From the sequence record DQ121662.1: DNA of 46,072 bases; one strand, written 5' to 3'. The notes beneath the pieces are model-generated. The model saw only the letters and a program-made list of their open reading frames with translations. It did no database searches and was not told where the DNA came from. Made by a program: the position numbers and the translations under genes. This stretch comes from Escherichia phage Jk06. Of the stretch, positions 18,023 to 42,508 are shown piece after piece; position 1 is the first letter of the stretch, and each line of letters opens with the position of its first letter.

Positions 18023-19255
18023 TAATTACAACCTCCGTTTGAATTGAGCCTTCACCAATCTTAACCTCAGTTGAAATTGCGCGCAACGTATCTCTTGCTT
18101 CGTCTGCGTCAATGATTCCAGCTGCAATCAATGCAGCAACTGAGTTAACATTCTTCTCAAGAATCTCAGATTTATCCTTGTCACTAACCTGCGATAGAGG
18201 GTTAAATTCTACTGACCACTCTTGCTCGGTTACGATGAACGGCAGCAGGAACTCAAGCAGAGGCAATAATTCAGCCTTTCGCTTACGGTCAACATAACCG
18301 TAGAAAGTCTCTAGAGCAGTGTTCTGGCTTGCTGACACACCACCAACATTCTTACCCTTAAGGATAATCTCATGAATACCGCTCAGAGCAACGATTCGAT
18401 CGAACTTCTGACTCAGAAATGTATCAATACCGCCAATATCTGAGTTGAGAACGTTGTACTCTTCACTATCCGCGTCAATCCCGATAGCCTGACCAACGCC
18501 ACTGTTATTATCCACTTGAGCCAGACGTAAACGAGCTGCTCCATCTGAATCATCACATAAGTCAGCAAGGCCTTTTGCTTTCCACACTCGCCTGCTGTTT
18601 ACGACGAAGTAACTGAGTAGCTCAGTCGCTCACAGTTCTGATAGTCGTCAATCGCGTCAATTAAGTCACTCAGTTATTACTGCTTGCGCTCCCAGCCATC
18701 GTTATTACGACGTAGGTTGTTAGGTACTCGCTCGCCATCAATGATGTGACAGCGTGTATAGTGCACATCGTAGAACGTTGCCGACCCGTTTGGCGTGATG
18801 CGGTAAGTTAATGGCTTACCAAAACGCGCGTTACGTGGATTCTCCTCGCGAGTCTGGACCTTAATTTGCTGCCGGTCGTATACACGAACCGTTTCAAGCT
18901 CCGCACCTTCACGAACCGGGCTGGTTAGCGCCCTTCCATCCTTCACAATTGCCACTACAGCAGCGCCACCGTATAGTCTCGCCCAGGCTAGTGCGTCGAT
19001 TACGTTATCTGAAAGGCCTAAATCATCCCATCGCGACCAGAATGCACCCTCATCATCAATGCCTTCAATGTTAAAGCCTGCGCCAAGCGCGACCTCTGGC
19101 ACGATATCAATAATTCGACGAACCAACGCACTACTGACGTAAAGCTGCTCAAGCTGTGCTGGAGCTGTCAGGCCAAGGCCGCCAAACTTTCCGTAAATCT
19201 CGCTACCATCAATCCCGTTAAGAAAGATGTTTGCGTAGCTATCTGCTTTTACCAT
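17982..19255 (-). CDS. portal protein, frame interrupted near 18590-18680
   Basis: Track ORFs 18677-19282 and 17982-18587 are contiguous; likely start MVKADSY at 19255 with RBS GGAG. Confidence 0.75.
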
Positions 19256-24673: not shown

Positions 24674-24692
24674 TTTAGCAATTTGTGCTATA
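24674..24692 (-). promoter_or_regulatory. inverted-repeat promoter/operator motif copy
   Basis: TTTAGCAATTTGTGCTATA on the plus strand, i.e. AATAGCAC-N4-TGCTAA oriented with minus-strand transcription. Confidence 0.45.
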
Positions 24693-25235
24693 TTCGCCAT
24701 TCAGGAGAGTTTTCGCTTTCCGGTAGAACTGTATGGCCTTCTCCACCTCATCGGCATCATAGCCATGGATTGTTGTTTGCGTTGGCACGTAGTTTGAGCG
24801 TGGCGCGTCGGATCGGTACTGACTGCACCAGTTTTGCACGTCGTCCTTATCCATCCCAACCAGGGCCGGATGAACATAAATCTTATCGCCAATGAGGCAA
24901 ACAATTCCCGCCTCCTGTAGTTCTGGGATGATGTTATTTGTCAGGTCATGCATAATCCCTTCGCGCCCGACGAATGGCTGGACCTTTCGGATTGCCTCGT
25001 ATAGAGATCGAATGCCAACCACTCCATTCCAGCCCTGGCGGCTAATCCTGCTCACTACGACACCGTATTTGTAGCTCAACTTGACGCACAGCATCTCTTC
25101 GGCGCTGGGCCAGAAATTGAATGATTGGCGGTATCCATTAGTATTGATTGCCACACGAAGTGGCGGCAGGTTATCTTGCCTGGCGACTTCCATCACCTGG
25201 TCATCAGTTAACTTATCTTCGTCGAAATCAAACAT
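24675..25235 (-). CDS. short paralogue of the 28217-29808 gene (shares its N-terminal and C-terminal domains, lacks the central P-loop region)
   Basis: N-terminus MFDFDEDKLTDDQVMEVARQDNLPPLRVAINTNGYRQS matches MFDFNDDKLTVEQVMAVAAQDGLPPLRVAINANGYRQS; segment GVVGIRSLYEAIRKV...CLIGDKIYVHP matches GVVGLRSLYEAARKV...CLIGDKVYINP. Confidence 0.5.
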   Translation of the reverse strand: MFDFDEDKLTDDQVMEVARQDNLPPLRVAINTNGYRQSFNFWPSAEEMLCVKLSYKYGVVVSRISRQGWNGVVGIRSLYEAIRKVQPFVGREGIMHDLTNNIIPELQEAGIVCLIGDKIYVHPALVGMDKDDVQNWCSQYRSDAPRSNYVPTQTTIHGYDADEVEKAIQFYRKAKTLLNGEYSTNC

Positions 25236-25777
25236 TAGTTAAACTCCTTGATCATCTCTTGATACATGCGGATAGCCTTAACTGCGCCAGTCAGCTCATC
25301 ACCTTCAAAATCCAGTACGTTAGGTGATAACTTAAGCAAGCGAGATTTGAACTTCTCAATAACAGCCCTCTCCTTTTCTTCTTTCTCTCTTTGTTTTGCT
25401 TTTGGCTCCTTAAGCCCCTCGGTGAGATGGATTAGCAGGTATTTATCAGCACCATCGCCATCATACTGGCGGGGCGTGGTATCTTCACCATCCGCATCAA
25501 TCCAGATGAATTGATAACGGGCGATATACTTAGCCTCACGCAACTCTCTCATTCGTGACAATGTATTATGAATGTATGAGTTCTTTAACTCACTCAACTT
25601 CCGCTCTCCAAGGTTGATAATATCCCCGGTTTTATCATCAGTCTCCATTTCCGGGTAATCATGACCTCTAATTTGTCGGTAAATATCTCGAACTGGAACC
25701 TTGAACTCCTTATCTTCTGACTGGAGTGCCTTTTTAGCCATGAATCGAATTACTTCACCTAAGGTCGTTTTGCTCAT
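25235..25777 (-). CDS. hypothetical protein (first gene of a leftward early operon)
   Basis: 180 aa ORF with RBS GAGAGGAA; TATAGT and CATCGAAACGAGG leader at about 25800-25830; stop overlaps the start of the next gene. Confidence 0.5.
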   Translation of the reverse strand: MSKTTLGEVIRFMAKKALQSEDKEFKVPVRDIYRQIRGHDYPEMETDDKTGDIINLGERKLSELKNSYIHNTLSRMRELREAKYIARYQFIWIDADGEDTTPRQYDGDGADKYLLIHLTEGLKEPKAKQREKEEKERAVIEKFKSRLLKLSPNVLDFEGDELTGAVKAIRMYQEMIKEFN

Positions 25778-26487
25778 GATGATTCCTCTCGTTGATTGTT
25801 GTTTGTTGCCTCGTTTCGATGAAATGACTATAGCAAAGATTTACGTGTCTATAAATGTATTTTTTTGTTTATTTTAAAATTGATACGCTTTTTTCCCTGC
25901 ATGCCGCATCGTTGCTGGGTGTGTACAGGCGTCTACGTGCGTCTACATATAGATGAGGGGGTTCTAGCTATATCCCCCTATATTTTCCTACAAGGTAGTA
26001 CAATTCCTACAGTGTAGGAATAAAAATAGAAATTTAAGCAAACCAACCTATATAGTAGCGTACAGATGATACGCTATATATACATAATACTATATATAAT
26101 AATAATAATAGTCTAAGTCCTTTATATATAAGGATATTTTAGTGTATATGGATTGTATCAAGGCGTATAAATTGTAAATGTGGATACGGTCGACAATCGG
26201 TAGACAGCGGACTACGCGTATATAAAAGAAGTCTCTCCGCGAGCGATAAAACCAACCAACTATTTGATCCAAACCTCCTTTCATTCAATCCATCCATCCA
26301 TCATTGCCAAACTGGCAACAATCAATAAACCTGTTGCACTCGATGAAATATTGCTTTATGTGTAATAGTCATGCTAATCATCGCAATGCCTGCAACAATC
26401 CATAAATCTGACGAATAGCACTTTTTGCTAAAGACAAATCCACCATGACTGGCTATAGTTTGCCAATCAACAGAGAGGAGAAGAAAC
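25778..26487. other. AT-rich intergenic region with iterons, palindromes and microsatellites between divergent early operons (candidate origin / control region)
   Basis: GCGTCTAC x2, palindrome ATTCCTACAGTGTAGGAAT, (ATA)n, TCCTTTATATATAAGGA, (CCAT)3, TTGCCAAACTGGCAA; no ORF of 60 aa or more. Confidence 0.5.
26414..26459 (+). promoter_or_regulatory. early promoter module (IR plus TATAGT)
   Basis: AATAGCACTTTTTGCTAA at 26414-26431, TATAGT at 26454-26459, RBS GAGGAG and ATG at 26488. Confidence 0.5.
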
Positions 26488-26706
26488 ATGAAAGCGATTA
26501 TTATCAACAACGAAATTAGGTACGACGAAGATTCAATGAGCCTTGCCGAACTTGGCTATCAGATTGGTGAGGAGGTGGAAGTTTACGAGATTGAAGGCTT
26601 CTACATGATGAGTTTAAAGGATCATGTATATGTTGATGGTACTCTTGCAATCTTTCAAGGTGAACAGTTTGTTGTTAGTAATGAAGAAATCAAGGTGGTA
26701 GCATGA
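26488..26706 (+). CDS. hypothetical protein
   Basis: 72 aa ORF with RBS; first gene of a rightward early operon. Confidence 0.45.
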   Translation: MKAIIINNEIRYDEDSMSLAELGYQIGEEVEVYEIEGFYMMSLKDHVYVDGTLAIFQGEQFVVSNEEIKVVA

Positions 26707-26942
26707 AGATTCGCTGCACCAACGTTATCCAAAGCACGGATAAGGATGTATTAACACCATTCATAAAAGGCTCCGTATACGACGCCGAGCCTCTAATCAT
26801 TAATGGTAAAACAATCCCGAACGAGTGGGTTATTAATGGCGCTGAGCGACCTCACAAGCACGATTCCGGCTGGATTGCTATCGCAGCATGGAAGGTTGGA
26901 ATGTTTATCCCTGGTGTTGCAACTTTTGATGAGGTTAAGTAA
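26703..26942 (+). CDS. hypothetical protein
   Basis: 79 aa ORF with ATGA overlap to the upstream gene. Confidence 0.45.
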   Translation: MKIRCTNVIQSTDKDVLTPFIKGSVYDAEPLIINGKTIPNEWVINGAERPHKHDSGWIAIAAWKVGMFIPGVATFDEVK

Positions 26943-27095
26943 ATGCTAAAGCCATCTGACTTGAACTATTACGATCTAGAAACCATAGCCAAGTACAGCG
27001 GTAAGGGTTGGCCTGTTGGTGACTACTTCAAAGAAGATTTGATTGAGAGCTTCAACATCGTCCAGAAGGAAATTGCAAAAGCAGCAAAGAAATAG
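26943..27095 (+). CDS. hypothetical small protein (50 aa)
   Basis: ATG overlapping the upstream stop (TAAATG); not in the ORF track because it is shorter than 60 aa. Confidence 0.35.
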   Translation: MLKPSDLNYYDLETIAKYSGKGWPVGDYFKEDLIESFNIVQKEIAKAAKK

Positions 27096-27153
27096 CACGA
27101 ATTGCTAAAGCCCTTCGGGGCTTTTACTGTATATTCATCTCATCGAAACGAAA
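27091..27153 (+). promoter_or_regulatory. early promoter module (IR, terminator hairpin, TATATT, CATCGAAACGAAA leader)
   Basis: IR at 27091-27108, hairpin GCCCTTCGGGGC, TATATT at 27130-27135, leader at 27141-27153, ATG at 27174. Confidence 0.55.
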
Positions 27154-27173
27154 AGTACTAAAGGAAAATAATC

Positions 27174-27527
27174 ATGGCTACTACTATCACAAAGAATTGG
27201 GTTAGCAGTGATAACAAATTATTTCAAGCTCGCGTGAAGGATGGAGTTGAGCAGATTAAAGTCGATGGTAAATGGCAAAACCTAACTGAGCGGGGGCGTT
27301 ACATCAAGACTAAGACTCTTTATGTCACATTTGTTAACCATAAATCAGGAGTATCAAAGTCATTCAAGCAAGGTCGTCGCTATCAGGTAGAAATGACCGC
27401 ATCTCTTGGACAGAACGCTGGTAAAATATTTGATGAAGATGGTGACTCATGGACGCTGATTCGCTCTGAAGATGTTGGATTTACAACTGTTTGCGGAACT
27501 TATAAATTCGAGAGCCAATACAAATGA
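27174..27527 (+). CDS. hypothetical protein
   Basis: 117 aa ORF with RBS AAGGAAA. Confidence 0.45.
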   Translation: MATTITKNWVSSDNKLFQARVKDGVEQIKVDGKWQNLTERGRYIKTKTLYVTFVNHKSGVSKSFKQGRRYQVEMTASLGQNAGKIFDEDGDSWTLIRSEDVGFTTVCGTYKFESQYK

Positions 27528-27718
27528 ATGAGACAGTAAGAATTTACATAACAAAAGATTCAATTTATTGCAAGTCTATACAACACGGCACTAAGTACAG
27601 ATACTGCAAAGATAGAGGCTATTTTTGCGTGGTTGATTTCATTACTAGAAAAGGGTTGCTTGAAACTTTCATAGATAAAATGCCTAGTAATAAGCTATCA
27701 TCTGGCGAAAGGTTTTAA
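27524..27718 (+). CDS. hypothetical protein
   Basis: 64 aa ORF overlapping the upstream stop. Confidence 0.4.
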   Translation: MNETVRIYITKDSIYCKSIQHGTKYRYCKDRGYFCVVDFITRKGLLETFIDKMPSNKLSSGERF

Positions 27719-27720
27719 TT

Positions 27721-27766
27721 AATAGCACTTTTTGCTAATGACACTACCCGCTTCGGCGGGTATATT
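27721..27766 (+). promoter_or_regulatory. early promoter module (IR, hairpin, TATATT)
   Basis: AATAGCACTTTTTGCTAA at 27721-27738, hairpin CCCGCTTCGGCGGG, TATATT at 27761-27766. Confidence 0.5.
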
Positions 27767-27803
27767 TGTTTCCATCAAGAAGACAAACACTAAGGTGAAC
27801 AAA

Positions 27804-27920
27804 ATGAAAAACATCTCTAAAGCAGTTGATGCGGTAATGGAACAAGTAATTAAGTTTGGTTTCTTTGGCTTCATGGGCGCAATCGCTGTTGTAGTTGGCA
27901 AATGTCTGGTTGGTCTTTAA
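27804..27920 (+). CDS. small hydrophobic protein (38 aa, single predicted transmembrane helix)
   Basis: ATG at 27804 with RBS TAAGGTG; sequence MKNISKAVDAVMEQVIKFGFFGFMGAIAVVVGKCLVGL. Confidence 0.35.
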   Translation: MKNISKAVDAVMEQVIKFGFFGFMGAIAVVVGKCLVGL

Positions 27921-27982
27921 TGGCACTTTTTGCTAAAGACCTTAACAACAAAAATTGATATATTCTCTTCATCGAAACGAAA
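27919..27982 (+). promoter_or_regulatory. early promoter module (IR, TATATT, CATCGAAACGAAA leader)
   Basis: IR at 27919-27936, TATATT at 27959-27964, leader at 27970-27982. Confidence 0.55.
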
Positions 27983-28002
27983 TACATTAAAAGGGCTAAA
28001 AA

Positions 28003-28182
28003 ATGGATATCATGACTACTATCGAAAACATCAAACCTGGCATGATGGTAAAAATGGGGCCGCTGTTCCGCAAAGTACTTCACGTTGACCTTAAGGAGAA
28101 TATCATCACCGTAATGATTAGAGGTCGCGCAAAGCTGTATCTTCCTCATAAAGGTCAGATGATTGAAGTTCGTATCAAGTAA
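28003..28182 (+). CDS. hypothetical small protein (59 aa)
   Basis: ATG at 28003 with RBS AAGGG; followed by hairpin AGCCCCTTCGGGGGC. Confidence 0.35.
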   Translation: MDIMTTIENIKPGMMVKMGPLFRKVLHVDLKENIITVMIRGRAKLYLPHKGQMIEVRIK

Positions 28183-28216
28183 ATAGTCAAGCCCCTTCGG
28201 GGGCATTTAGAGAGAG

Positions 28217-29808
28217 ATGATAATGTTTGATTTTAATGATGACAAATTGACTGTTGAACAAGTAATGGCTGTTGCCGCTCAGGATGGATTACCTCCTTTA
28301 CGTGTTGCTATTAATGCGAACGGTTATCGCCAGAGCGCATCATTCTGGAAAGCTCCGGTTGAGATTGATTCTACTGGCGACAAGTATCCTGTTATCTCGC
28401 TTGGTAACGACTATGATGTAGTTGGCAAACTATCAAGCAACATTGCTCGTTCTGTTCAGTTTCCTGAATCATCTGCTTATATGCACTTCCTTGGTTGCAT
28501 CTCGGCAGCTATGTTAGGTCGCTTTACGGTTGAGTATCACGGAACTCAACAACCAACATCACTGTATGTAGTGACCAGCCAGCCTCCATCAACTGGTAAA
28601 TCTGCCATTAACTCGCTGTCTCTGGCTCCAATGATTGCAGAGACTGAGCGACTAAACGATCTGCGTAAGCGTGACCGTAAAAAGATTATGGCCAAGCTGT
28701 CGGCTCTGGCTAAAGAAATGAAGCAGGAGAAGTCGCCTTCTGAGATGGCTGGTTTGTTTGAGGAGAAGGAGGAGCTGGAAGATAAGCTCGAGAAACTTTG
28801 CGACATCGTATTCCCTGTATCTGATACTACTCCTGAAGGTCTGGCACGCATTAACCATCGTCAGGGTAGCTTCGCTGTCATCTCGGATGAGGCGACGAGC
28901 GTCAACTCACTGCTGGGCATGACCTATGGTGATGGAACAAAGAAAACAAACAGCGAACTGGTACTTAAGGCCTGGGATGCTGGTAACGTATCTATCGCGC
29001 GTGCGAACGCAGAGAACAACATGAGCTTTATTGCTATGGGGTGTATTTCTGTAATTGCGCAGGATGAAACAATAGTCGCAATCATGAATGCTGGTGCTCG
29101 CGGTATTGGTGTATCCGAACGTTTCTTGCTTGTGCGTGAAAAGTCATTCCTTGGTGAGCGTGTTTTCGTCGATGATAATGGCGAGTCAACATATGAGCCG
29201 ATTGACGGAGCGTGAAGGGCTGATTACTTCCGTCTTTGTTCATGAAATTATGAGTGAGCAAGATGTTAAGTTGACTATTAGTAACTCAGCAATGAAGCAC
29301 CTTAACCGTGCTCGACAGGAAAATGGAGCCACACCTTGCAGATGGCGGTAAGTATTCACACACAATGCTGCGCGGCGCGTTAGGTAAAATGGATAAACAG
29401 GTAATTCGCATTGCTGCAGTTCTTCACACTATCCGTAACTGGTTTAACCCCAATGGCGGTAGTCCGCAGAAGTCCAGGGAGATTGAACTGGAAACCATGC
29501 AAGAGGCTTTGTTGATGTTTGGAGAACTTAGTAAGACTTACTTATCCTCAGCTAACGCAGCTGGTCATGCTGGCGATAACGCTGAGATGAACAAGTTAAT
29601 TGATATCCTTATCAAGCAAGGCAAGAACAGTAAAGGAGTTGTGGGTTTGCGTTCACTTTATGAAGCTGCGCGTAAGGTTCGACCTTTCGAGTCACAGGCT
29701 GGTGTTATGGCTAAAATTAAAGACCACTTACTGCCGATGCTTGATGAGAAAAACTATACCTGCCTGATTGGTGACAAGGTATATATCAATCCACGGCTGC
29801 TGGGGTAA
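28217..29808 (+). CDS. P-loop NTPase-like protein (about 530 aa), reading frame interrupted between about 29215 and 29310; long paralogue of 24675-25235
   Basis: Track ORFs 28217-29215, 29088-29351 and 29308-29808 are contiguous; Walker A-like SQPPSTGKSA; N- and C-terminal segments match the short paralogue. Confidence 0.55.
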
Positions 29809-36232: not shown

Positions 36233-38178
36233 TTAGAACTCCTTATTAGCAATATTATCGCCACCTTTAGCGGTCTTGCGGTGAGTTACCCTCTTAGGAG
36301 CATGGATGTACTGCGAATACTCCATAATCTTGCGAGCATTGCGATATGCAGCCATATATCGCTTAGCGTTCATGTCGACTACGTGACCTTTAATTCCATT
36401 GTTCAACCAGAGTGTTTTACATACTCGATGGTCAGACTCTACGAAGAAAACCTCATGAGCTTTAAATGTCCCACCCATGCCATCATCAAGGATGTAGTTG
36501 TAGATGATTCCTGATTGGTTCTTTGTTAGCCCAACCTTAAAGTCAACAACATCAAACCAGTCGTTCTTGCGGTAATGTTTGCCGCTTAACTTGAGATTTG
36601 GATCAAGCAAAGTGCAATCGCAACCCCTACAAATCTTAGCTGCAACGTCATTCTGAACTCCGCAGCCTTTAACGATAACCTTTCCGGTTCGTGGGTCTTT
36701 CTGGTCTTCACATGTGCGACTAACCCAGAAATATTCGCAGCGATTATTATTCTCATCAATATGCATGCAACGTCGAGCAAAGAAGCTGTTCTCTGTTCCG
36801 CATACTGGACACTGCTTAGTCTCCTTGCCATTATCTTTCGTAGCTGATATTGAGCCTGCTCAAGAATTGGATTGAAGTACAATGATGCCATAGAGTCCAT
36901 CGTTCCTGCGAAGTCCAGTACCAAATGGTCATTCTTGACCATTCCTTTATCTTCATGGAGCTTCTTAAGCTTACGCATTCCTCGACCAAGTAGCTGAACC
37001 AGGAGCGTAAGGCTACCAATCTTACGCAGAATAACGCTTGTATCCCATGTAGGCACATTTACGCCAGTGGTTAGCGCCTGAACCTGAAAGCAATATTTAA
37101 TCTCCCCGCTAAAGCACTTATCAAGCAACTCCTTGCGCTGCTTCTCGCCAGTCTTTCCAGTTATAATGCAGAACTTTTCACCTTCAGGAAGGTAACTTGC
37201 GGCTTCGTGGCAATGGCGCTCACCTGCGCATGTTACCAGAACTCCATTCCTGTCTTTCGCGGCAAGCCATACTTTCTTCATTATCTCCGCTGTCATTGTT
37301 CCAGATGCCTGAATCTTTTTATCCATGGCTTCAAGCTGGGCTTTAGTGTAATCCTGAACACCATCTTCAGATGATGCATCAAACTCTGACAGGTCGTAAC
37401 CAACGCCATCAGTAGCACCAAAGTTTGTCGGAACCACGGAACCGAACTCGACCAGGTAGTTTGTATCGATATTTGTGACCGTCTCACGCCAAAATCCCAA
37501 CTCCTTTTTATTTTCAACAACTATTGGCGTAGTTCCACGGAAAGGAGAACCAGTCAGTCCAAAGATACGAAGATTCTTGCCATACTTAGCACGGCAGCGC
37601 TCCATTAAAGTCAGTATGATTACCGTATACTGGCTACGTCCCTTATCTGATGCCTGTTGCGCAGTCTCATTGTTATCTAGAGCCTCAGCCACATCCTGGT
37701 CATCAACATGGTGACACTCATCAATAGCAACTACCGCAGGGCAGAAATCGCCAAGTGACCTCTCAAGCCCGCCAACTACTGTACCCTCAGAGCCAACCAC
37801 CACAGGGAAATAAGATGATTTTATTCCAAGCCCAGAGCAATAGATGGAGTTAGGAACCCCGTAATCAGAAATCTCAGAAGCATTCTGGCTAACCAGCTCT
37901 GCCTGACGAGCAAGAACAAGCATAGGCAAGCCAAGCTCAGAGCAACGCTTAGCAACCATACCAAAAACCAGAGTCTTACCAGCAGAAACTGAAGCCATTG
38001 CGATAAATGGATGCTCATAGCGACTAATGCGCTTTGCAATCTCATTGTACATAACACACTGATAGCTATACGGAACCATACCGTTAGAAGAGGTGAATTT
38101 AGTTTGAATCTCTTTAATCTTATCTTCGCCCAATTCTTCAATCTGTTTTTGTATTGTTTTCAATCGGTTTTCCATAAT
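36233..38178 (-). CDS. SF2 DNA helicase with C-terminal zinc-ribbon region, frame interrupted near 36800-36840; start taken at MENRLKTIQ
   Basis: Motif I SVSAGKT, motif II DECHH; Cys-rich C-terminal continuation CPVCGTEN...CRGCDC in ORF 36233-36766; the first 16 track codons overlap a promoter module. Confidence 0.75.
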
Positions 38179-38189
38179 ATCAAATGCCT

Positions 38190-38256
38190 TTAATGTTTGT
38201 TCGATTGACGATATAATAACAGCCATCTAAACCAATGTTTAACAAAAAGTGCTATT
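38190..38256 (-). promoter_or_regulatory. early promoter module upstream of helicase
   Basis: IR TTTAACAAAAAGTGCTATT at 38238-38256 (reverse orientation), then TATATC and CAATCGAACAAAC leader before the internal ATG at 38178. Confidence 0.45.
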
Positions 38257-38793: not shown

Positions 38794-39717
38794 ATGAATT
38801 ACGACAAGAATGAAGTAATACCTAAAATGGCTGGATTGTGGAAATCATTTTATGCAAAGGAGCTTGGTTGGAATGATAGACACCTTAGCAAGAAGCACGG
38901 GCCGTGCCCTTATTGCTTTGGTACTGACAGATTCAGGTTTACAGACGAAATAGGAAGCGAAAAAGGTAATGGGGCCGCAGTTTGCTCTAAGTGCGGCAGT
39001 GACTCAGGAATAGGCTGGGTTATGAAATGTTCCGGCCTTAGATTTGCGGAAGCTATAAATTTACTTGGCGACTGGCTTAATTTGACTCCCGTCGAAATCA
39101 TAGTGAAGGCAAACAAAGCAGCGAGCCGAGTTCAGAGATATAACTTTGGCGCTCAGGCATCCATTGAATCAATCGAGAAGGTAATCTCTCGCACCAAGTC
39201 TGTAGAAATGACACAGCTTACGAGATTTGAAGCAATTATTACTGAACGGGAATACAAAATAGGAATAAAGGGGTCTGGAGAAGAAATTATAGCCGAGCAA
39301 TGCTTTATGGTTTACGAGGATGGTTTATCAGATGAGCCTTGTAACGTAAAGTTTATAGATGAAGAGGGTAATGAGTCATATCTCGCAAAAGACTACACTC
39401 GCGGCTCGGTTGTTCCGGTAAGTAAATGTAGTGATGGCGCTATCTACCTCACTGTTGGCTGGATTAACGCACTACATGTATCGGCATGCACAAAAAGGAC
39501 AACTTACGACTGCCTAACTCACCACAACTTAGAAATGGTTGCTTATGAACTCAGGAATAAAGAGTGCAGGATAGCTTGCTTAGCTGATGAAAAGGAGTCG
39601 CTTTATGTTGCTGATGATAGAGGTCTAAAAGTCGTAATACCTAAAGGTGGCAATTTCAAGATGGGGCTTGAAAGAAGGTTATATAACCCGCAAGATCTGA
39701 TAGATAAGCATTCATAG
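38794..39717 (+). CDS. DNA primase (zinc-ribbon plus Toprim-like)
   Basis: N-terminal Zn-binding pattern CPYCFGTDRFRF...CSKCGSDSG typical of phage/plasmid primases; 307 aa. Confidence 0.7.
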   Translation: MNYDKNEVIPKMAGLWKSFYAKELGWNDRHLSKKHGPCPYCFGTDRFRFTDEIGSEKGNGAAVCSKCGSDSGIGWVMKCSGLRFAEAINLLGDWLNLTPVEIIVKANKAASRVQRYNFGAQASIESIEKVISRTKSVEMTQLTRFEAIITEREYKIGIKGSGEEIIAEQCFMVYEDGLSDEPCNVKFIDEEGNESYLAKDYTRGSVVPVSKCSDGAIYLTVGWINALHVSACTKRTTYDCLTHHNLEMVAYELRNKECRIACLADEKESLYVADDRGLKVVIPKGGNFKMGLERRLYNPQDLIDKHS

Positions 39718-42012: not shown

Positions 42013-42025
42013 CTAAGGGACTGGT

Positions 42026-42508
42026 TTGGAGTTAATAGTAATGCTCTTACTGCAGTATAACGTGATGGCATCAGGAGAACACAGTGTCTCATTGTTAATA
42101 TCAGCATCAGGTGAAACAAGAGTTTTATCAGGTGTGTTGCCAGTCTCATCAAGAATGGTCAACGGTGGTACTTACAATATTGCTCTTGGTTTTGATGTAT
42201 CTGGTAAGGTTTGGTGGAGCATCTTAAACCTGAATACTGGATTTAGAGTTAGAAGGTCATTTGATTCTCAGTATATAGATATTGATGTCAGACCTATACT
42301 AACAACAGCTGGTAACTATGTAACCATGTATTCAGGTCAAGGCGCTGGTGATGTAGCTTGCTCTGGATATGGCTTTGGTGTTTACGTTGGCAGCTATTCA
42401 GATGAGTCTGATTATTGCGCTTCAAGATACTATTCGCTTAAAGGTGGTGTTGATTTGACAAAACAATCAGTATTTTTGAGTTTGAATGGTGATGTAACGT
42501 CACAATAA
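42026..42508 (+). CDS. hypothetical protein downstream of tail fibre gene (possible fibre-associated protein)
   Basis: 160 aa ORF, Gly/Ser/Tyr-rich; ends at a bidirectional terminator. Confidence 0.4.
   Translation: MELIVMLLLQYNVMASGEHSVSLLISASGETRVLSGVLPVSSRMVNGGTYNIALGFDVSGKVWWSILNLNTGFRVRRSFDSQYIDIDVRPILTTAGNYVTMYSGQGAGDVACSGYGFGVYVGSYSDESDYCASRYYSLKGGVDLTKQSVFLSLNGDVTSQ

Follow-up and report, generated by a model that had tools for sequence, protein, structure and literature searches.

A motor-less paralogue of the MCM-like DUF3987 helicase in an early operon of Escherichia phage Jk06

MCM-like motors of the DUF3987 helicase family occur in phages and mobile elements; the family is large and has barely been studied. 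Polyomaviruses make truncated T antigens, for example T'165 of JC virus (JCV), in which N- and C-terminal parts of large T are joined. For DUF3987 proteins, the biochemical demonstration of hexamers and ATP-dependent unwinding is limited to one distant relative, a PriCT-DUF3987 protein (PMC11724360). In archaeal MCM, the winged-helix (WH) domain is a part outside the motor that contacts partners and tunes the motor (PMC4357721); the C-terminal WH domains of ORC/Cdc6 and MCM are among the closest known systems to the one described here, along with the DUF3987/SF6 helicases, the truncated T antigens and the lambda O/P pair. Here we analyse a 46,072-nucleotide (nt) sequence of Escherichia phage Jk06 (DQ121662.1; hereafter the window), in which a short gene, S (24675-25235, minus strand), is paralogous at both ends of its product to a long gene, L (28223-29808, plus strand), that belongs to the DUF3987/SF6 MCM-like phage helicases (PF13148; Kazlauskas, Krupovic & Venclovas 2016; AgaPH, NAR 2025). 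The parts of the two genes, with lengths in amino acids (aa), are as follows.

24675-25235, minus strand: S (JK_46; phrog_7327), 186 aa
25092-25235, minus strand: helicase-like N mini-domain of S, aa 1-48
24852-25091, minus strand: linker helix and winged helix of S, matching the helicase C-terminus, aa 49-128
24678-24851, minus strand: family-specific tail of S with the conserved helix HGYDADEVEKAIxFYRKAK, aa 129-186
28223-29808, plus strand: L, DUF3987/SF6 MCM-like replicative helicase, 527 aa when intact
28223-28366, plus strand: N mini-domain of L, ~45 aa, acidic, three-helix
28577-28606, plus strand: Walker A motif of L (SQPPSTGKSA)
28877-28897, plus strand: Walker B motif of L
29111-29125, plus strand: VSERF motif of L
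about 29570-29805, plus strand: C-terminal winged helix of L, basic
29213-29320, plus strand: disrupted stretch of the helicase gene, with differences from phage AHP42

An earlier note, made from the letters of this DNA, had proposed that the two proteins share their termini, and this paralogy proved real at both ends. When S was compared with the reconstructed long protein using BLASTP, S 1-48 matched L 3-50 with 69% identity (E 3e-20) and S 66-127 matched L 467-530 with 52% identity (E 4e-20). BLASTP statistics are composition-adjusted, and the similarity therefore extends beyond low complexity, which does not explain the matches. Two profile comparisons confirmed and lengthened the C-terminal match: positions 41-128 of the PHROG profile of the S family aligned with helicase residues 439-526, and hhalign of the S and L family alignments gave a probability of 99.4% (E 2e-21). 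S itself matched phrog_7327, annotated 'unknown function', along the whole profile (residues 1-181 on positions 1-179 of 179, E 2.4e-98). It had no Pfam match at E ≤ 1, and a tblastn search of the whole window found no further copies of S beyond the two L segments. Sequence searches of PDB, NCBIfam and PADLOC with S, L and the protein of the neighbouring DUF7174 gene gave nothing significant, while fold matches in BFVD were confined to T1-like phage relatives and their helicases.

The P-loop that the earlier note had read in the long copy is present at the Walker A position listed above; no P-loop was found in the 186 aa of S, whose alignment to L is confined to residues 1-50 and 439-527 of the latter. 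Judged by its sequence, S is a protein without the AAA+ motor (about L residues 50-432), composed of two peripheral modules and a tail of its own of ~58 aa. Because the whole motor is missing, S should be unable to hydrolyse ATP or unwind DNA. The C-terminal module of S has the alpha1-beta1-alpha2-alpha3-beta2-beta3 order of a winged helix in a confident AlphaFold2 (AF2) model. Both paralogues share a charge pattern, with an isoelectric point (pI) of ~4 for the N module and ~9 for the WH; the WH segment of S is basic (pI 9.1), but its putative recognition helix (helix 3, aa 94-108) is neutral to acidic. No other part of the window encodes a paralogue of the S tail, and a relationship to the conserved C-terminal helix of the DUF7174 protein was rejected (hhalign probability 0.2%).

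L is the conserved replicative helicase already known from Drexlerviridae, a DUF3987 (SF6, MCM-like) protein that ends in a WH. Its intact orthologue from phage AHP42, which differs by 2 residues from the repaired window gene, matched Pfam PF13148 over residues 81-430 with 147.3 bits, against a gathering cut-off of 27 (E 8.7e-43), and L has an MCM-like AAA+ fold. Across 32 diverse homologues G125-K126-S127, E223 and E299-R300 (SERF) are invariant, and Asp222 of the Walker B motif (SDEAT) is kept in most, with Ala in a few distant ones. The true start of L is probably 28223 (MFDF) rather than the listed start of the open reading frame (ORF) at 28217. Between the preceding small ORF and this start lies a GC-rich hairpin without a T-run (28181-28205, GCCCCTTCGGGGGC). 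The only primase in the window, a Zn_Ribbon_Prim domain protein at 38794-39717 (plus strand), is encoded about 9 kb from L and is neither fused nor adjacent to it.

The gene 28217-29808 had been taken for a single ORF of ~530 aa, and this did not hold for the window as deposited: the first frame of L ends after 332 aa at a TGA at 29213-29215, and the remainder lies in two other frames. The last fragment listed, 29308-29808, encodes 166 aa from a GTG start and corresponds to the 166-aa BFVD entry 'JK_55P [phage Jk06]'. The breaks amount to four homopolymer-length differences from AHP42, all within 110 nt; TTGAAG in AHP42 reads TGAAGG in the window, which makes the in-frame TGA, and single additional nucleotides stand in the window at 29235 (T) and 29320 (A). 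Reverting the four differences yields a 527-aa ORF that is 2 residues off AHP42 gp54. All helicase orthologues examined are intact at 527-529 aa (AHP42, AKS96, e4/1c, UDF157lw, JeanPiccard, other phage records and metagenome contigs). Over this region the window is 98.9% identical in DNA to Escherichia phage vB_EcoS_AHP42 (Drexlerviridae, Rogunavirinae), in whose annotation JK_46 names the S homologue, JK_47 the upstream gene and JK_52 the helicase. The string acgcgtatatcaaatagcac opens the window, and Kropinski et al. (2012) give the same start for coliphage JK06 (NC_007291, 46.1 kb), a sequence that they describe as containing 'numerous errors' and frameshift-derived pseudogenes (PMC3496638). 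Since the JK06 sequence is documented as error-rich and the gene is intact in every relative examined, the stop and indels in L are most likely sequencing errors, and the apparent helicase 'pseudogene' of JK06 most likely exists only in the sequence as deposited.

Elsewhere in the window, single-nucleotide indels relative to AHP42 are scattered and cluster inside conserved and structural genes (e.g. 18588-18690, 42015-42050 and 36233-38226). In a tail gene, one stretch of 100 nt has five extra T's, and the ORF of an SF2 helicase has 546 aa where AHP42 has 647. The scattered indels fit the published error-richness of the JK06 sequence, and ORF-level oddities of the window therefore need comparison with relatives.

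Synonymous sites between S and L of the same genome are saturated (proportion of synonymous differences, pS, 0.6-1.0), and codon identity at identical S-L residues equals the random expectation; these values therefore indicate an ancient duplication with no recent gene conversion between the inverted paralogues, an explanation that pS rejects. In AKS96 and Phleasolo the WH of S is close to that of L at the protein level only. Selection against nucleotide identity of the inverted copies was likewise rejected (9 identical codons observed versus 11.6 expected, P 0.2). Among 13 genomes the median ratio of nonsynonymous to synonymous substitution rates (dN/dS, omega) was 0.28 for S and 0.03 for L, and in S omega was 0.26-0.30 in each module (N, WH and tail). 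By these comparisons S is an ancient inverted duplicate of the helicase gene, under purifying selection. Despite the age of the duplication, the N module of S is 66-79% identical to the helicase N module in 11 of the 13 genomes, which requires that selection has kept acting on the same sequence features. Identity among the L proteins of all S-bearing genomes is 91-95%; because L is nearly invariant, co-variation of S with L was uninformative (identity to the L of the same versus other genomes 66.6 versus 66.6 for the N module and 42.2 versus 41.8 for the C-terminal module).

A profile search of 1.84 billion representative proteins found the S family confined to T1-like phage material, alongside the helicases themselves, and public data hold at least 120 clusters (90% identity, 164-191 aa) of intact full-length S. 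The labels L001 and L005-L019 used below denote compared phage loci (L009 is Phleasolo and L019 is ACG-M12) and are distinct from L, the helicase. In Phleasolo (L009:2019-2690) S is split into a 52-aa N-peptide ORF and a 136-aa WH-plus-tail ORF, and in OzMSK it is also split into two ORFs. The product of ACG-M12 gp77 (L019:1025-1309; 94 aa) joins the N module directly to the tail helix, with no WH, and in LF82-11 an unrelated ORF occupies the position of S. N-variants and WH-variants of the S family assort independently. The proposal that N and WH form one co-evolving composite domain was unsupported, given this independent assortment and the existence of the split and N-plus-tail forms.

S has a constant neighbour, the DUF7174 gene, and both lie on one side of a divergent control region with the following features.

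25235-25777, minus strand: DUF7174 gene (JK_47; phrog_4841), 180 aa, first gene of the leftward operon
25778-26487, no strand assigned: divergent intergenic control region, AT-rich (GC 0.36)
25985 and 26004, with an inverted copy at 26013: TTCCTACA motifs
26057-26075: inverted repeat AGCGTAC/GATACGCT
26096-26110, no strand assigned: invariant (ATA)n tract, kept in 12 diverged phages within otherwise variable sequence
26118-26134: palindrome TCCTTTATATATAAGGA
26290-26440: right part of the region, nearly invariant at the nucleotide level in the 12 phages

S directly follows the DUF7174 gene in every genome examined that carries S. In the window the DUF7174 stop codon overlaps the S start codon by 1 nt (TAATG), and AAGGAG lies 9 nt upstream of the S start; S looks like an expressed gene, translationally coupled to DUF7174 in the early leftward operon. 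The control region sits at a switch of both transcription direction and GC skew. That S and L flank it, as the earlier note had it, holds in that they lie on either side, but only loosely: S, the second gene of the leftward operon, is 540 nt away, and L is reached only after 1.7 kb of the rightward gene cluster, with about 8 small ORFs preceding it.

The same region had been described as an iteron region. An iteron-type replication origin would have an array of at least three direct repeats that resemble each other, about 17-22 bp long and regularly spaced, beside an AT-rich tract. Repeat finders detected no such array in 25778-26487, only repeats of 7-14 nt in 2-3 copies and one 34-nt pair. 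It is a control region, AT-rich and conserved, rather than an array of iterons. Two 7-9-nt repeats stand directly to the left of the AT tract as a pair whose sequence varies by clade while the pairing persists (window 26040-26135 compared with L001 and L005-L018). The six repeat types near the AT tract match six DUF7174 types one-to-one, a co-variation that is confounded by physical linkage (~300 nt); in alignment columns 1-140, DUF7174 identity is 64-96% within a repeat type and 27-61% between types. No such correspondence holds for S type, with S identities of 34-78% within and 30-80% between repeat types. L012 and L013 have S proteins that are 80% identical and different repeats, while 2004III and L012 have S proteins that are 34% identical and the same repeats. 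Since the repeat types follow DUF7174 type and not S type, DUF7174, rather than S, is argued to be the candidate sequence-specific binder (an origin- or operator-binding protein), and the earlier suggestion that S binds the repeats is argued against.

Other features of the control region were also observed. The sequence at 25985-26020 (TTCCTACAaggtagtacaaTTCCTACAgTGTAGGAA) combines a motif triplet with a palindrome, and the JeanPiccard clade has TTCTGACAagTGTCAGAA instead; both palindrome arms have thus undergone compensatory change, suggestive of a hairpin or of a site bound by a dimer. The stretch 26290-26440 holds two 34-nt repeats 77 nt apart (26300 and 26377) and a conserved AACGAATAGCACTTTTTGCTAA, and it overlaps a small minus-strand ORF (26322-26510) where AKS96 annotates a 40-aa transmembrane protein. 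AHP42 is annotated with a near-consensus leftward sigma-70 promoter (TTTACA, 15-nt spacer, TACAAT), corresponding to window 26152-26178 (minus strand). This position would put the AT tract and paired repeats in a transcribed leader of ~370 nt upstream of DUF7174, an arrangement that could represent an operator or a transcription-activated origin. A search of Rfam with 25600-26700 gave no match.

The earlier note had read the pair as a replication initiator or loader with a truncated paralogue. The second part stands, in that S is a motor-less paralogue, but L is a DUF3987 helicase, neither initiator nor loader. From the shared modules we tentatively favour, at somewhat less than an even chance, that S serves replication as an accessory or regulatory factor with the same partners as the helicase. 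Consisting only of the non-motor parts, S could not unwind DNA, yet could occupy those partners: it may bind whatever the helicase N module binds, the candidates being the Zn-ribbon primase, the ring formed by the helicase and some host factor. Its tail helix and a second WH would be presented as well, and S might act as an adaptor or competitor when the helicase is recruited or activated at the nearby control region, possibly with DUF7174, to which sequence-specific recognition of that region would more likely fall. The matching charge patterns of the S and L modules support a shared-partner role, as does the constant DUF7174-S synteny with overlapping stop and start codons, and the Phleasolo and ACG-M12 variants fit an adaptor of independent binding modules.

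Several observations weigh against this role. The evolutionary rate of S is about 10 times that of L, and the WH domains of the two share only 23-65% identity; such divergence sits poorly with a model in which S simply competes for an identical WH partner. Of 761 matching phage records only 105 have full-length S, and many Drexlerviridae lack S while carrying an almost identical helicase, which places S outside the core replication machinery. Recombination freely reassorts S types and DUF7174 types, so that a tightly co-adapted S-DUF7174 pair is unlikely. S also sits among small variable early genes, a position typical of host-takeover or counter-defence genes. For a simple competitor, then, dispensability in many relatives and the diverged WH are unfavourable, and neighbourhood and tempo also fit a counter-defence protein or decoy, or a regulator of early transcription.

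That S is such a counter-defence or inter-phage competition factor, either a decoy that mimics the exposed helicase termini and soaks up a host immune sensor or inhibitor aimed at the helicase, or a poison for the helicase of co-infecting relatives, is nevertheless unlikely in our judgement. Besides its location in the variable early-gene region, this explanation would account for the fast evolution of S (omega 0.28 versus 0.03) while the mimicked helicase is almost invariant, for presence/absence and module-loss variation between close relatives, and for the shuffling of S types by recombination independently of their neighbours, as is typical of arms-race accessory genes. Against these points, S matches neither PADLOC nor an annotated anti-defence family, its N module is strongly conserved rather than diversifying, and its coupling to DUF7174, which co-varies with the control-region repeats, points to a DNA-transaction role; moreover, we know of no defence system that senses DUF3987 helicase termini. 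Slightly less probable is a transcriptional role, in which S would be a winged-helix regulator of the divergent early promoters built from captured helicase modules. Such a regulator would fit the basic WH fold (pI ~9) of S and its early-operon gene, which is 540 nt away from a control region that is conserved and contains palindromes and promoter-like sites, but the clade-specific repeats follow DUF7174 type and not S type (the L012/L013 and 2004III/L012 pairs), and the putative recognition helix (aa 94-108) is not basic. A regulator also leaves the acidic helicase-like N module, at ~70% identity, unexplained, and ACG-M12 keeps N and tail while dropping the WH. The split ORFs of OzMSK and Phleasolo, and many short N-only or WH-only ORFs in metagenomes, might instead indicate a decaying remnant of an inverted duplication, or S might owe its similarity to chance or low complexity. 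This is effectively refuted by the composition-adjusted E values of 3e-20 and 4e-20, the intact ORFs in at least 120 sequence clusters, an omega of 0.28 overall and 0.26-0.30 per module with saturated synonymous sites, the conserved family-specific tail helix, and the confident AF2 model of S.

A further reading extends the replication-accessory role, and we regard it as unlikely: in a subset of T1-like phages, DUF7174 and S would together form an origin-recognition and helicase-delivery system. DUF7174 would bind the clade-specific paired repeats beside the invariant (ATA)n tract (repeats and tract together, 26057-26110), at which the DNA would unwind. S would be a loader that arose from the terminal modules of the helicase itself, bridging DUF7174 to the MCM-like helicase, the primase or both. 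If true, this would be a helicase loader derived from a phage's own helicase, and a tractable bacterial-virus model for MCM loading.

The helicase family is already known; S, as a motor-less helicase paralogue, has probably not been described previously. We found no description of the S-L paralogy in the literature on DUF3987, JK06/Rogue1, the Drexlerviridae origin or phrog_7327. T1 is a classical phage, but searchable papers gave no identified origin or initiator for T1-like phages, and a literature search on T1 host-replication requirements gave nothing useful. The paper re-annotating phage TLS found no origin repeats. A selectively maintained non-motor protein marks the end modules of the helicase as independent functional units, probably partner-binding, and makes S a ready-made tool for finding helicase partners. 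Together with the DUF7174-repeat co-variation and the invariant AT tract, S gives a concrete, testable model of where and how replication starts, and interest in it would rise if the three were to define the replication-initiation module of T1-like phages.

Compared with the known systems, L differs from other DUF3987/SF6 helicases in that a primase is neither fused nor adjacent, the Zn-ribbon-type primase being about 9 kb away, and in that its N-terminus has, in place of a PriCT domain or MCM N-domain, a three-helix mini-domain of ~45 aa; S, without the defining AAA+ core, is not a member of that family. The truncated polyomavirus T antigens embody the same concept as S, helicase termini without the core, with a proposed role in modulating replication or host interactions. 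They are, however, splice isoforms of one gene, whereas S is a separate, ancient inverted paralogue with its own tail, in a bacteriophage, and the proteins are unrelated. Like lambda O and P, DUF7174 and S are two adjacent, translationally coupled early genes beside an AT-rich region; DUF7174 co-varies with short DNA repeats as lambdoid O proteins do with their iterons, and the S modules could contact the helicase system in the manner of a helicase-delivery gene. Lambda has a four-iteron array within the gene and uses the host DnaB, whereas here the repeats are two-copy and outside the gene, and the phage encodes its own MCM-like helicase; S is also missing from many relatives, and neither DUF7174 nor S is related in sequence or fold to O or P.

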